Positions 3,441 to 7,722 are shown, counted from the first letter of the stretch. The stretch is DNA of 7,970 nt from a virus (IMGVR_UViG_2698536392_000014:1-7970), one strand, 5' to 3'. Made by a program: numbers and translations. The notes: generated by a model from the sequence alone, not told the origin.

Positions 3441-4085
3441 CTAGAGGCTGAACTGAACACCTTTTGCTACAGCAACGATGTTACATTCCGGTGTAAGTAA
3501 GGATGATTGATAGCGTGGGTTAAGGGGGGCTAAGTACACGAGCTTTCCATCAATAACTAATTTTTTTATAGTCATGGATGGTTCGTTTGTGAGTGGATCT
3601 GGGACTATTACTGCGACGATGCTACCATTTTTATATTTTTCGCCAGGCCTCATGATCACTGTGGCTCCAACTGGAATGCTTGGGGATCCTGATGGATTGT
3701 GCATAGTATCATCAGGCATTGAAACGGCAAAATCTCCCTCCTTGACATCAAAGAATGTGGTGATCCTGTCGACATTTCCCATAGTTTTCTCTCCTTTTAA
3801 TATTAGGAAAGAAATCGCTTCTCCCCAAGAAAGGTATGGGATTTGGGTACCTGGATTTTTCTGCACAAGGGATGATTCAGGTGATGATACTCCATACAGG
3901 AGATAGGACTCAGTAGTGCCTAGTGCTAGGGCTAATTTACTAAGAGCTTTGCTACCTGGTTCGTTTAGATCTTTCTCCCAGTATCCTATTGTTACCCCAG
4001 TTACGCCAGAAAGCTTGCCAAGTTCAACTTGGGTCAGACCTTTGTCTTTTCTGAGTTTCTTAAGCCTAATGCCAAGGCTTTCCAT
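3441..4085 (-). CDS. LexA/cI-type phage repressor (N-terminal HTH, C-terminal S24 autopeptidase domain), 214 aa
   Basis: N-terminal HTH (..KGLTQVELGKLSGVTGVTIGYWE..); C-terminal S24-like region with candidate catalytic Ser (..FAVSMPDD..) and Lys (..TIKKLVIDGKLVYLAP..); GGGAG Shine-Dalgarno 6 nt before ATG at 4085; divergent from a Cro-like gene. Confidence 0.9.
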   Translation of the reverse strand: MESLGIRLKKLRKDKGLTQVELGKLSGVTGVTIGYWEKDLNEPGSKALSKLALALGTTESYLLYGVSSPESSLVQKNPGTQIPYLSWGEAISFLILKGEKTMGNVDRITTFFDVKEGDFAVSMPDDTMHNPSGSPSIPVGATVIMRPGEKYKNGSIVAVIVPDPLTNEPSMTIKKLVIDGKLVYLAPLNPRYQSSLLTPECNIVAVAKGVQFSL

Positions 4086-4184: not shown

Positions 4185-4412
4185 ATGCGAGTTGATGAAC
4201 TTGTCCAGTTTTTTGGTTCTGTCCAAAGAGTCGCTGATTTTTATGGGGTAACCCGAGAAGCTATATACATGTGGCGTAAGCGTCCCGGCGAAATAGTTCC
4301 CAAGGGGAGGGCTGCTGAAGCAGTTGCATACTCCAAGGGAAAATTATCGTTGAACCCAGAACTTTACAAAAAGAAGGATAACACCTCGAACGAAAGGAAA
4401 AATGATTCATGA
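4185..4412 (+). CDS. Cro-like HTH regulator (P22 Cro / YdaS-like), 75 aa
   Basis: Divergent from the repressor; strong Shine-Dalgarno; the HTH segment (..FGSVQRVADFYGVTREAIYMWRK..) resembles, from memory, the P22 Cro / YdaS pattern (..FGTQRAVAKALGISDAAVSQWK..). Confidence 0.8.
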   Translation: MRVDELVQFFGSVQRVADFYGVTREAIYMWRKRPGEIVPKGRAAEAVAYSKGKLSLNPELYKKKDNTSNERKNDS

Positions 4413-4705
4413 AAATCAAACATGAACACATCCGCATGGCGATGAATGCCTGGGCATATCCTGATGGTGAGAAAGTGCCTGCAGCTGAAATAGCCCGGAC
4501 TTATTTCGAACTTGGGATGACGTTCCCGGAACTGTACGACGACAGCCATCCGGAAGCCCTGGCCCGTAATACCCAGAAAATTTTCCGCTGGGTGGAGAAG
4601 GATACGCCTGATGCGGTTGAAAAAATTCAGGCGCTGTTACCGGCGATCGAAAAGGCGATGCCGCCTTTGCTGGTGGCCCGTATGCGCAGTCACAGTTCTG
4701 AATAA
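4409..4705 (+). CDS. YdaT-like / CII-analogue small regulator, 98 aa
   Basis: Start overlaps the cro-like stop (ATGA at 4409-4412), with AAAGGA 10 nt upstream. The N-terminus MKIKHEHI... matches my recollection of YdaT-family proteins that follow Cro-like genes in Rac-type prophages. The family assignment is recalled, not verified. Confidence 0.7.
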   Translation: MKIKHEHIRMAMNAWAYPDGEKVPAAEIARTYFELGMTFPELYDDSHPEALARNTQKIFRWVEKDTPDAVEKIQALLPAIEKAMPPLLVARMRSHSSE

Positions 4706-4855
4706 ATGGCTGAACTGCTGAATGATGCACATCCGGAATGGAGTTTAAGAACCTGTGAAAGACGCATTGAGCATTGGCTAAAGGTGGCAGAATTTATTTT
4801 GTACAAACCAATGGTTATGGCTTCTGGTATAGAGAAAAAAGTTATTGCTTTTTGA
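4706..4855 (+). CDS. possible small ORF, 49 aa, coupled to the preceding gene (TAAATG)
   Basis: ATG directly follows the TAA of the YdaT-like gene and ends before the intrinsic terminator; no Shine-Dalgarno of its own. Below the 60-aa cutoff of the ORF track; found by hand translation. Confidence 0.3.
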   Translation: MAELLNDAHPEWSLRTCERRIEHWLKVAEFILYKPMVMASGIEKKVIAF

Positions 4856-4933
4856 CGTAAAAACTGCTTCAATTCCGGTAAGCTTCGCAAAGCTGTACCG
4901 CGAGGCGAATAGCAGACATGGACATTTGAAAGA

Positions 4934-4955
4934 GCCCGCTTTTTGCGGGTTTTTT
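4934..4955 (+). terminator. intrinsic terminator ending the cro-like operon
   Basis: GC stem CCCGC (4935-4939) with GCGGG (4945-4949), 5-nt loop, then six T (4950-4955). Confidence 0.55.
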
Positions 4956-5077
4956 ATGACTGAAAAACGGCACGGGGCGTTAAATGCGCTGGTGGTTGCG
5001 AATACCGGTCTTTCTGCTTACTGGCTTTTTGGACAAGAATTATTGGTATGTCACGTTAACCAAAAGGGAAAAAAGAC

Positions 5078-5275
5078 ATGCTAAAACAGCAGGATATGAC
5101 AGAAACCGCCAGAGTGGTGTTTAATGAATTAAGCGTTACCGACCCGGCGACAGTCGGGGAGATTGCGCAGAATACTTACCTTTCACGCGAACGCTGCCAG
5201 TTAATACTGACCCAGCTTGTTATGGCGGGTCTGGCAGACTATCAGTTCGGTTGTTACAGACGCCTTCCGCAGTGA
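5078..5275 (+). CDS. small winged-helix-like DNA-binding protein, 65 aa; possibly a remnant N-terminal domain of an O-type replication initiator
   Basis: ATG at 5078 with AGGGA 7 nt upstream. The segment ..TVGEIAQNTYLSRERCQLILTQLVMAGL.. resembles, from memory, the lambda O N-terminal region (..LSEITKLPVKRCNEAKLELVRMNII..). Stop is embedded in a terminator. Confidence 0.5.
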   Translation: MLKQQDMTETARVVFNELSVTDPATVGEIAQNTYLSRERCQLILTQLVMAGLADYQFGCYRRLPQ

Positions 5276-5285
5276 AGGCTTTTTT
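5262..5285 (+). terminator. intrinsic terminator overlapping the stop of the 65-aa ORF
   Basis: Stem GCCTTC (5262-5267) with GAAGGC (5274-5279), 6-nt loop, then six T (5280-5285). Confidence 0.6.
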
Positions 5286-5302
5286 ATTTGTGGTAAATGG
5301 GC

Positions 5303-5333
5303 GGCTGGTGGGTGTTAGGGGCACCTACCAGCC
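5303..5333 (+). other. very stable stem-loop in the methyltransferase leader
   Basis: GGCTGGTGGGTG (5303-5314) pairs with CACCTACCAGCC (5322-5333): 12 bp including one G-U pair, 7-nt loop TTAGGGG, no following T tract. Two further hairpins follow at 5375-5393 and 5398-5416. Confidence 0.45.
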
Positions 5334-5425
5334 ATCTGCTCATGCGTTGGGTTCACAAGCAAACCTCAGGCCCACTGCTTTGCGCAAAAGCAGAATGAGC
5401 CTATCAGAGACAGGCTTAATGATCC

Positions 5426-6502
5426 ATGCTTAATACTGTAAAAATATCCAGTTGTGAGTTAATCAACGCTGATTGCCTGGAATTTATCCAGACCTTACCG
5501 GAAAACTCTGTCGATCTGATAGTCACAGACCCGCCATACTTTAAAGTGAAGCCCGAGGGCTGGGATAACCAGTGGAAGGGCGACGATGATTACCTGAAGT
5601 GGCTGGACCAGTGTCTGGTGCAGTTCTGGCGGGTGCTGAAACCTGCCGGAAGTCTTTACCTGTTCTGTGGCCATCGCCTGGCATCTGACATTGAAATCAT
5701 GATGCGTGAACGCTTCAATGTGCTGAACCATATTATCTGGGCGAAGCCGTCCGGACGCTGGAACGGGTGCAACAAGGAAAGCCTGCGGGCGTATTTTCCG
5801 GCCACAGAACGCATTCTGTTCGCGGAACATTATCAGGGGCCGTATCGTCCGAAAGATGATGGCGATGAGGCGAAGGGCAGGGCACTGAAACAGCATGTGA
5901 TGGCCCCGCTGATTTCTTACTTTCGTGATGCGCGTGCTGCTCTTGGGATAACGGCAAAACAGATTGCAGATGCCACAGGAAAGAAAAACATGGTGTCGCA
6001 CTGGTTCAGTGCCAGTCAGTGGCAGCTACCGAACGAAAGCGATTATCTGAAATTACAGTCGCTGTTTGCCCGGGTGGCAGAAGAGAAACATCAGCGGGGA
6101 GAACTGGAAAAGTCCCATTACCAACTGGTCAGCACATACAGTGAGCTGAACCGGCAGTATATGGAACTGCTGAGTGAATATAAGCATCTGCGGCGGTATT
6201 TCGGTGTGACGGTGCAGGTGCCGTACACCGATGTGTGGACGCATAAACCGGTGCAGTACTATCCAGGGAAACATCCGTGCGAAAAACCGGCAGAAATGCT
6301 GCGGCAGATAATCTGCGCGAGCAGTCGTCCGGGTGACCTGGTGGCGGATTTTTTCATGGGTTCTGGCTCAACCATAAAAGCAGCTATGGAGCTCGGGCGT
6401 CGTGCAACTGGTGTTGAACTGGAGGCAGAACGTTTTGCGCAGACCGTTAAGGAGATTAGTCACATCCTTACATGCTCAATTGATGACGGGAAGGATGGAT
6501 AA
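5426..6502 (+). CDS. DNA methyltransferase, beta-class amino-MTase (N6-adenine or N4-cytosine), 358 aa, apparently orphan
   Basis: Motif IV DPPY near the N-terminus (..VDLIVTDPPYF..) and AdoMet motif I near the C-terminus (..DLVADFFMGSGSTIKAA..); order IV-I defines the beta class, with a central target-recognition region containing an HTH-like stretch. No restriction endonuclease gene adjacent. ATG at 5426 has no obvious Shine-Dalgarno. Confidence 0.9.
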   Translation: MLNTVKISSCELINADCLEFIQTLPENSVDLIVTDPPYFKVKPEGWDNQWKGDDDYLKWLDQCLVQFWRVLKPAGSLYLFCGHRLASDIEIMMRERFNVLNHIIWAKPSGRWNGCNKESLRAYFPATERILFAEHYQGPYRPKDDGDEAKGRALKQHVMAPLISYFRDARAALGITAKQIADATGKKNMVSHWFSASQWQLPNESDYLKLQSLFARVAEEKHQRGELEKSHYQLVSTYSELNRQYMELLSEYKHLRRYFGVTVQVPYTDVWTHKPVQYYPGKHPCEKPAEMLRQIICASSRPGDLVADFFMGSGSTIKAAMELGRRATGVELEAERFAQTVKEISHILTCSIDDGKDG

Positions 6503-6613
6503 AGATATGGTCAGTTCAGGCTGTGAAGCAAGTAGACAGATAAGGCTGCAATAAAAACTGACAATAGTAAAATAGCTTTTTCCCAGGTAGTCATGAATAC
6601 GATCTCTTAAAGC

Positions 6614-6633
6614 GCCCGCTGATACCAGCGGGC
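6614..6633. other. GC-rich hairpin downstream of the methyltransferase gene
   Basis: Perfect 8-bp stem GCCCGCTG with CAGCGGGC and loop ATAC. Only a short T run on the minus-strand side and none on the plus side, so a weak terminator at best. Confidence 0.3.
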
Positions 6634-7271
6634 AATACATACTGGCATTAATGTTAAGTTCAGGGATAATTCATCGTATTTTGTGGTACGACGCTATCAA
6701 TATTAATAAACAGTATTTTTCATGTAAAATTTCTGTTTTTTGATCTGATTCTCGTTTCCTGGGTTATGATGTTGTTGTGAACCATGCTGTTGAATGATAA
6801 TGTTCGGGTATAAAATTGTTGCTGATATGTAGCGCAGTGAGCAGGTGGTATTTCTGTTGCTGAGTGTACGGATACAGTGCTTCCCTCCCTCAGCGGGGGG
6901 GCAGGTGTGCTGTGGTTTTAGAGACACCGGAAACGAGAATGATGCGGGTTTGCTGGTGCCGGGATAGAGTCGCCGGAGGTCATGACATAGAGCAAAAAAG
7001 GAATGTGCATGCAAATACACACCTCTTCGGAGATCTCTTCTTTATATGGATGAGCCTCAAGGTCAATAGTTTATCTGTTATGTATTCATATGTTGTTACT
7101 TATATAATCCATACGGGCATATCATCAGTACACACATACTATTATGGCATTTTATTTTTGTTTTAACTGAATTCCCGGGGCACTCTTTTTGATTTCTGAT
7201 AAGGAACCAGAATTTTCTGTTAAATGGTGTCACGTTGTAAATGGTTAATGGAAGCAGCTTATTATCCATAA

Positions 7272-7295
7272 TCACACCTGAGTTAACAGGTGTGA
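7272..7295. promoter_or_regulatory. perfect 9-bp inverted repeat TCACACCTG-AGTTAA-CAGGTGTGA, candidate binding site for a dimeric regulator
   Basis: Exact palindrome arms with a 6-bp spacer, inside an ORF-poor AT-rich region about 430 bp upstream of the next gene start. Confidence 0.35.
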
Positions 7296-7722
7296 GAATA
7301 CTTCCGGGTGGCAGGAACACATCTGACTGATACCAGATTATCAACTTTATTTTACACCATACAGTTGAAAACGTTATTCCGCTTGATGGGCATATCACTG
7401 TGTCAATAACTATCCATTCCATCTTTTAACCTTCTCGGTACACATTGCTTTCGATTGTTTTGCTAAAAATCATAGTCAATAAATCAGTGTAACTCATTGA
7501 AAAAGATCGTCTTCTTTGTCTTCCTGGGGTTTTCTTTTCTAATTTTGTATCACTTTGGTTCAAGTTGTTTCATTTTTTTGTAATACAAATTAGCAGGATG
7601 AGCGGGAATATAAAAAAATCGGATGTTTTTGTAATGGATATTATTTTTTGTAAAATAATGTATTTTTATTTAAATCTCTATCAGAAAAGAATTTATTGTT
7701 CCTTTATATGGTGGAAAAGGTC

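Follow-up and report, generated by a model that had tools for sequence, protein, structure and literature searches.

Gene content of the locus

The window, meaning the whole 7,970-nt stretch of DNA that was analysed, shows 100% identity to part of a decayed lambdoid prophage of E. coli 2013C-4830 (features in Table 1). A truncated YdaT-like gene lies between cro and the remnant of a DUF1133 protein, which is regarded as the remainder of the Q antiterminator because Q occupies that position in intact relatives. The order of Q, tR', small open reading frame (ORF), spacer, methylase and lysis genes is found in SfV, mEp460, phiNP and phages of Morganella and Providencia. phiP27 shows the same order through the methylase, with tRNA and stx genes intervening before the lysis genes. 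This arrangement in the relatives identifies the spacer as an internal leader of the Q-dependent late transcript; within this lambdoid late operon, no other enzyme gene precedes that of the methylase. Since most of Q has been lost from the prophage in the window, the local copy may never be expressed; it is probably silent unless Q from another prophage acts in trans.

The single-sequence AlphaFold2 model of the 65-residue small-ORF product, with a pLDDT of 56, is unusable. This ORF ends with a TGA (5273-5275) that falls within the loop of a terminator-like hairpin (5262-5279), so that translation reaching the stop could interfere with hairpin formation. In many homologues a UAA or UGA is found in the same loop, e.g., GCCUCCAGUAAUGGAGGC. 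The hairpin with its T-run corresponds to the terminator that the original prediction had placed upstream of the methyltransferase gene.

A full-length DicF sRNA is present at 2125-2176 on the minus strand (75 bits versus a gathering score of 48), adjoining dicB and ydfC. Directly downstream on the same strand follows a subthreshold STnc100-like match (1918-2127; 37.7 bits versus 47). A short RNA-like unit on the plus strand, directly after the Q remnant (4882-4955), carries a strong terminator at its end (AGCCCGCTTTTTGCGGGTTTTTT). Its IsrK-like Rfam match is weak (19.8 bits; E = 0.75), and it occupies the place of the PR'-tR' short transcript, the source of StxS in Stx phages. The A+T-rich spacers around iraM (region 6500-7620) correspond to the moron-flanking sites at which the convergent anti-sRNAs AgvB and AsxR were mapped (Tree et al. 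2014), and no terminator-like site was found in these spacers. These two enterohemorrhagic E. coli (EHEC) prophage sRNAs were rejected as candidates for the leader, as both map downstream of moron genes instead.

Table 1. Features of the window and segments of the predicted leader RNA
Feature	Position	Strand	Remarks
cI-like repressor	3441-4085	-	
cro	4185-4412		
DUF1133 protein remnant, 49 aa	4706-4855		Read as Q-antiterminator remnant
tR'-like terminator	4932-4955		Between Q remnant and 65-aa ORF
Small ORF, 65 aa, PHROG 331	5078-5275	+	Weak TrmB-like winged-helix signal; precedes leader at most, not all, loci
Terminator-like hairpin (5262-5279) plus TTTTTT	5262-5285	+	Upstream of leader
Whole leader RNA, ~135 nt	about 5290-5428	+	
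Segment Z, GUGGUAA (consensus UGUGRAA)	5290-5296	+	Conserved 5' flank
Segment A, AUGGGCG	5297-5303	+	Invariant in 82 leaders; partner B (fold I) or D (fold II)
P1 hairpin, 12 bp here	5303-5333	+	Both folds
Segment B, AUCUGCUCAUG	5334-5344	+	Pairs with A (5297-5302 x 5338-5343) or C (P2 helix)
Segment C'/C, GGGUUCACAAGCAAACC	5349-5365	+	Pairs with B (fold II) or F/F' (fold I, long range)
Segment D, GGCCCAC (GCCCA invariant)	5369-5375	+	Pairs with A (junction closure) or E (P3 base)
P3 top hairpin, CUGCUUU/AAAGCAG, 7 bp	5375-5393	+	Both folds
Segment E, AAUGAGCCU	5394-5402	+	Pairs with D (fold I) or F (fold II; P4, the earlier third hairpin)
Segment F/F', AGGCUUAAUGAUCC	5412-5425 (-14 to -1)	+	No Shine-Dalgarno; pairs with C'/C (fold I) or E (fold II)
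DNA methyltransferase CDS, 358 aa	5426-6502	+	PF01555
iraM (RssB anti-adaptor)	7096-7422	-	Antisense within late region

Identity of the methylase

The methylase encoded in the window shows 91% identity with M.EcoGII over 349 amino acids, the reference sequence being taken from PMC11551740 Table S1, and matches PF01555 with an E value of 1.9e-42. The enzyme is a beta-class N6/N4 methyltransferase, a class marked by an N-terminal DPPY and a C-terminal FxGxG motif. Judged by domain, identity and location in a prophage late operon, the gene served by the leader is a member of the M.EcoGII family. The original prediction had called the gene a methyltransferase and had missed its M.EcoGII-type non-specific identity, and hence the reason for its control. 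M.EcoGII methylates adenine in any sequence context, in DNA as well as in RNA, and is silent in lysogens and deleterious under constitutive expression (PMC5778455). This toxicity and the silence in lysogens give a clear reason for tight control of the methylase. Non-specific adenine methylation is predicted for the copy in the window from its relationship to M.EcoGII. Murray et al. name phage 1720a-02 as a carrier of a methyltransferase very similar to M.EcoGII, and this phage carries the same leader with 96.7% identity. A protein scan of IMG/VR with the methylase of the window recovers close relatives only (89 to 99% identity) and adds little diversity.

Hairpins and start region of the leader

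Three hairpins had been described between the upstream terminator and the methylase start, and all three are found. The first stem is formed by GGCTGGTGGGTG (5303-5314) and CACCTACCAGCC (5322-5333), with 12 bp, a 7-nt loop and a single G-U wobble at 5310/5326, as claimed; no other G+C-rich inverted repeat with a short loop in the window is as strong. The second comprises 7 bp (5375-5381/5387-5393) and the third 6 bp (5397-5402/5412-5417), the latter belonging to an alternative fold and not to the minimum free energy (MFE) structure. The leader region folds more stably than expected by chance, with z-scores of -3.7 (5256-5445) and -3.0 (5286-5440) and none of 200 dinucleotide shuffles folding as well.

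The in-frame TGA at 5420-5422 leaves the ATG at 5426 as the sole start after it, again in agreement with the original prediction, and the RefSeq annotation of the identical genome uses the same start. The absence of a Shine-Dalgarno (SD) sequence is likewise confirmed, with an anti-SD hybrid energy of -3.3 kcal/mol at the methylase start, compared to -5.3 to -8.3 kcal/mol for the neighboring genes and -2.6 kcal/mol for random 18-mers from the window. All 82 homologous leaders lack an SD sequence (mean anti-SD energy, -2.96 kcal/mol). A GATC just before the ATG (5421-5424) is near-universal among them. In fold I, described below, it is paired with a GAUC-like stretch, GRUCA, in segment C (5350-5355), corresponding to columns 147-151 and 72-76 of alignment A4; one leader, L038, has lost the two together. 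Most homologues are also predicted to form a 9-bp hairpin (CAGUGUUGA/UCAACGCUG) within the opening 50 nt of the methylase gene, e.g., at about 1525-1548 of locus L013, equivalent to 5450-5473 of the window.

Distribution and conservation

A 155-nt leader query matches 2,882 of 5,426 complete E. coli genomes, nearly always directly upstream of an annotated DNA methyltransferase, as well as 59 phage records from Escherichia, Shigella, Citrobacter, Klebsiella, Morganella and Providencia. Among loci encoding methylase relatives in Enterobacterales genomes, about 50 of 80 carry the leader. A degenerate pattern scan of IMG/VR gives 119 matches, 3 of which are chance hits. Of the 113 genuine matches that extend far enough downstream, 112 have the methylase behind the leader; the sole exception (L254) is a leader truncated behind segment E. 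The invariant AUGGGCG lies 127 to 132 nt from the methylase ATG, and the small ORF is absent from about 14 leader-bearing loci.

A scan of the whole window against Rfam 15 shows no family match in 5286-5425 at an E value of ≤1. With lax filters, 231 nt of the region and one homologue yield chance-level matches only (≤18.2 bits versus gathering scores of 36 to 90). In the literature, no description of an RNA element upstream of M.EcoGII-type genes was found; the leader sequence, like the words methylase and methyltransferase, is absent from the supplements of PMC4104026.

Within the leader, P1 exceeds all other elements in stability and in depth of conservation. Its stem, formed in E. coli by GGCUGGUGGGUG/CACCUACCAGCC, is replaced entirely by compensatory changes in Proteus (GACAGUGAGGAUG/CAUCCCCGCUGUC and GACUGUAAAAGUG/CACCUUUACAGUC) and in some IMG/VR phages (GGCAGAAGAGUG/CACUGCCUCUGCC). 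The loops of P1 and P2 vary among leaders, and for segment Z no consistent pairing partner was found among the homologous leaders.

Leaderless homologues in Proteus hauseri and Proteus cibi (L088 and L090) carry an AAAAGGA SD sequence. Methylase relatives in Photorhabdus and Xenorhabdus (L054-L080) have a shorter leader of 70 to 90 nt (about 1410-1500), which retains GGUGAAAUG and a P1-like hairpin; in Xenorhabdus this hairpin is followed by a U-run and thus looks like an intrinsic terminator. Some short leaders of this type (Xenorhabdus) also possess an SD sequence. Given the SD sequences of the leaderless Proteus and some Xenorhabdus relatives, possession of the elaborate leader goes hand in hand with absence of an SD sequence. 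Mosaic junctions occur inside or just after P1 (L009, 2512-2575; L008, 2501-2540). Phage phiSTEC1575-Stx2k (L009) keeps the small ORF and P1, followed by an HTH gene, tRNAs and stx2k; PhiR5_1 (L008) has the left P1 arm only, without a methylase.

Two alternative folds and their covariation

Across 82 distinct leaders, each of the segments A to F has two possible partners. Fold I is comprised of A:B, which extends P1, D:E, which forms the base of a long P3 hairpin, and the long-range helix C:F, which buries positions -16 to -3 before the ATG; in the window, the predicted helix covers the AUG too (5344-5347 x 5426-5429). Fold II has a three-way junction that encloses P1 and P2 (B:C), with A:D as its closing helix, together with the short P3 top and P4 (E:F), and leaves -4 to -1 free. 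The A:D closure was picked independently by RNAalifold. The hairpin set of the original prediction represents only one of two mutually exclusive, co-evolving folds, the second having been missed.

A covariance model built on fold II was used to align 51 and then 82 distinct leaders. For fold II, 88.8% of cells hold standard pairs in the 82 leaders, with two-sided changes in 19 pairs and 31 to 41% pairing in slid controls; for fold I, 92.6% of cells hold standard pairs, with two-sided changes in 15 pairs and 32 to 42% pairing in slid controls. As the alignment was fitted to fold II, the result for fold I is the more conservative of the two.

The alignment shows covariation in the predicted helices specific to each fold, namely, C:F for fold I and B:C and E:F for fold II. 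Two-sided changes are found in 5 of 10 pairs of B:C (pair 54-82: UA 31, CG 28, AU 9 and UG 4), 5 of 11 pairs of C:F (pair 80-142: GC 60, AU 14 and GU 8) and 5 of 7 pairs of E:F, compared to 1 of 6 pairs of D:E. A:B as the sole partner of B was rejected, as column 54 of alignment A1 covaries with column 76 (P2) and not with column 15. Changes in A:B occur on one side only, and A:D is invariant. As neither A nor the GCCCA core of D shows any variation, the support for A:D and A:B is their complementarity.

The C strand CACAAGCG is changed to CACGGAUA, CACGGACA or CACGGGCG with both partners altered alongside, B to CCCGUU and F to GGUUACCCGG or GGUUCUCCUG. Cognate duplexes are predicted to be more stable than non-cognate duplexes combined from other clades: -6.8 versus -4.9 kcal/mol for B:C (cognate better in 40 of 41 combinations), -10.1 versus -7.8 kcal/mol for C:F (40 of 50 combinations), -7.5 versus -6.4 kcal/mol for D:E and -8.6 versus -7.1 kcal/mol for E:F. 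The frequent G-U pairs (e.g., at alignment pair 15-57 in 59 and at pair 73-150 in 39 of the 82 leaders) place the structure on the plus-strand transcript. The two-sided changes come largely from a few divergent clades (Morganella, Proteus and one IMG/VR clade) and thus represent few independent events, and C:F is down to a few pairs in one IMG/VR clade (L228, L233, L247 and L272). A comparison across homologous methyltransferase loci had been proposed as a check on the original prediction, and it reveals a structure conserved with compensatory base changes. This conservation across genera is stronger evidence than the shuffle z-scores.

Energetics and folding order

With either fold enforced, the free energy difference between fold II and fold I is 2.5 ± 3.4 kcal/mol for 48 sequences and 2.6 ± 4.2 kcal/mol for 82 sequences extended by 40 nt into the coding region. 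The balance usually favors fold I, in the window by 6.2 kcal/mol. In unconstrained ensembles, the occupancies of P2, A:D and P4 vary together and are opposed to those of A:B and D:E. Positions -6 to -1 are unpaired in 10 to 23% of sequences in fold I, and positions -4 to -1 are unpaired in 57 to 72% in fold II. The predicted difference in start accessibility is modest, since F (-12 to -9) is paired in both folds.

Predicted MFE structures of the growing transcript contain A:B in 81 of 82 leaders once B has been made and the A:D junction in 47 of 82 once D has been made. After synthesis of E, A:B plus D:E predominates (63 of 82); after synthesis of F, the outcome is mixed (42 versus 24), and at full length fold I is predicted for 65 of 82.

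A proposed two-state leader at a start without a Shine-Dalgarno sequence

In the absence of an SD sequence, initiation depends on an open start region, and the balance and timing of the two folds should therefore set the frequency of translation. The leader is moderately probable to be a cis-acting, two-state element that gates initiation at the SD-less start and acts as a translational throttle or switch. The default state of the full-length leader would be the closed fold I, in which the C:F helix would close the start by pairing -16 to -3; fold II would be the open state, single-stranded from roughly -4 onward. On the modeled structures, fold II would thus be the ON state. The folds would interconvert in vivo, and translation would be confined to a brief co-transcriptional window or to a minor open population, which would keep the enzyme low despite very strong late transcription. 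No dedicated ligand or protein would be needed; were there a dedicated trigger, an RNase would be a candidate for it, next to a small molecule, the small protein encoded upstream and the methylase. This two-state model is built throughout on comparative and thermodynamic evidence, and under it the leader most likely keeps translation of the toxic methylase tightly limited.

The general idea of the original prediction, post-transcriptional control of the methylase mRNA, is upheld by the covariation conserved on the plus strand, the fixed distance to the start, the pairing of the 3' segments before the ATG and the linkage to the gene in 112 of 113 cases. Two of the more specific proposals are not upheld. 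A classical transcription attenuator is not supported, as P1, P3 and P4 are not followed by U-runs, and an intrinsic terminator within the leader was rejected, the only hairpin with a U-run being that at 5262-5279, upstream of the leader. A separate small RNA is not supported either, given the lack of a promoter-like site and of a 3' terminator and a structure that takes in the translation-initiation region.

Alternative explanations

It is conceivable, if unlikely, that the leader is a switch operated by a ligand or protein, with the A:D junction as a binding domain whose occupancy favors the open fold. The effector could be SAM or SAH, the upstream winged-helix protein or the methylase itself, the last via m6A in the leader. 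The mutually exclusive, co-evolving helices, the compact three-way junction with invariant closing strands and the near-isoenergetic folds, as expected of an element poised for a trigger, agree with such an operation. The small ORF adjoins the leader at most loci, and M.EcoGII acts on RNA (PMC5778455). Characteristic features of riboswitches are found in the leader: a conserved, aptamer-like structure whose stems covary (P1 and P2, with A:D closing the junction) and mutually exclusive expression-platform helices at the ribosome-binding region (C to B or F and E to D or F, with F at -14 to -1). Against this stand the lack of any Rfam riboswitch match even at an E value of ≤10, with no similarity to known SAM or SAH riboswitch classes in the Rfam scans, a very small junction, and the poorly conserved loops of P1 and P2. 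The small ORF is missing at the leader-bearing loci mentioned above, which weakens the small protein as an obligatory partner, and the invariance of A and D is explained just as well by their having two partners each. A true sensor, whose invariant A:D junction binds an effector and flips the leader from closed to open, is quite unlikely.

A static processing or stability element is another reading of decidedly low probability. Here, P1 and A:B would serve as an RNase III site or a 5' stabilizing hairpin and separate the methylase mRNA from the upstream late transcript, the other helices being incidental. Processing elements of this kind have precedents in the RNase III sites of the lambda N leader and of the T7 early region. 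This reading accounts for the stability and deep conservation of P1, for its retention together with the small ORF even where the methylase has been replaced (L009) and for the terminator hairpin at the same position in related Xenorhabdus loci. For an RNase III site, cleavage and a coaxial duplex of at least about 20 bp would be expected; P1 (12 to 14 bp) and A:B (6 bp), with a 4-nt asymmetric loop between them, give about 18 to 20 bp in total. The static reading leaves unexplained the compensatory changes in B:C, C:F and E:F as well as the fixed spacing to, and pairing with, the SD-less start.

Coupling to a leader peptide is very improbable. In this scheme, an upstream ORF (uORF) would start at the AUG at 5297, and its translation would melt A and P1 and open the methylase start. 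The AUGGGCG is invariant, and a GUGA or GUGG 1 to 3 nt upstream could pair with the 3' end of 16S rRNA; the flank, on the other hand, is strictly UGUGRA and never a canonical SD variant. The uORF has 3 to 45 codons and encodes unrelated peptides, most copies stopping after 7 codons in the P1 loop, and C:F and the closed start persist in silico when Z, A and the left P1 arm are masked. An attenuator of the ermC/cat type was rejected on the grounds of this variable uORF, its unrelated peptides and a start that masking does not open.

The same slight chance is given to a DNA-level element, such as Chi or a recombination junction, or an independent sRNA gene between the ORFs. A Chi octamer (GCTGGTGG) lies in the left arm of P1 (5304-5311, plus strand) on the late-sense strand, an orientation that in a lambdoid phage is recognized by RecBCD entering from the cos side, as established by lambda genetics. 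It is conserved in most copies from Enterobacteriaceae and Morganella, and the mosaic junctions fall inside or just after P1. The asymmetry between the P1 arms is explained by G-U tolerance. In 9 of 51 leaders Chi is lost and the pairing kept; Chi as the sole cause of conservation was rejected, as the stem persists without it in Proteus, L017, L027, L038, L045, L048 and L050. The covariation, together with the many G-U pairs, points to a structure formed by the plus-strand RNA, and an sRNA gene is further opposed by the lack of a promoter-like site in 4700-5700, of a U-run terminator after P3 or P4 and of an Rfam sRNA match, and by the fixed position relative to the methylase ATG.

Relation to known systems and significance

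The proposed two-state leader resembles the hok mRNA of the hok/sok system of plasmid R1 and its relatives, whose metastable and alternative folds prevent translation of a toxic gene, in that the product is harmful, long-range pairing closes the translation-initiation region, mutually exclusive helices show covariation, and the order of folding during synthesis matters. The leader shows no sequence similarity to hok, and neither an antisense RNA nor a 3'-end processing element was found at the leader; no promoter-like site lies on its minus strand, as an antisense RNA of the hok/sok type would call for. Pairing in hok joins the 5' and 3' ends, compared to pairing within a 135-nt 5' leader here, and hok belongs to a plasmid addiction module, in contrast to a phage late operon.

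In the lambda cIII mRNA and the leader of the MS2 maturation gene, as in the two-state model, two conformations of the start region decide initiation, and in MS2 only nascent chains whose leader has yet to adopt its final fold are translated. Both have other sequences and architectures, the alternative fold of the methylase leader being a three-way junction; the cIII mRNA also has an SD sequence and is modulated by RNase III, whereas the methylase leader lacks an SD sequence. Translational riboswitches share with the leader a conserved structured 5' leader, covarying stems and exclusive helices at the start. They differ from it in that the leader has no Rfam match, a small junction and variable loops and serves one gene family in a phage late operon. 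RNase III sites such as those of the lambda N leader and the T7 R sites are likewise long imperfect hairpins between phage cistrons; the P1 duplex of 12 to 14 bp with its 6-bp extension is borderline by comparison, and the RNase III model leaves the co-evolution of the B:C, C:F and E:F helices unaccounted for. The leader is a genuine structured RNA, widespread and apparently undescribed, that joins the known class of alternative-fold leaders controlling translation.

M.EcoGII and its relatives are widely used as chromatin- and RNA-footprinting reagents. The natural regulation of M.EcoGII-type enzymes is described only as silence in lysogens and toxicity upon forced expression (PMC5778455). The leader represents a well-populated candidate RNA family absent from Rfam, found in more than half of the complete E. 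coli genomes and in several genera, and it may prove useful both for studying how RNAs switch during transcription and for keeping toxic genes tightly OFF. Should the sensor reading be true, it would imply feedback control over a genome-wide hypermethylation program in temperate phages. As a two-state, SD-less element, the leader would provide a concrete mechanism for brief expression of the methylase from a very abundant late transcript.
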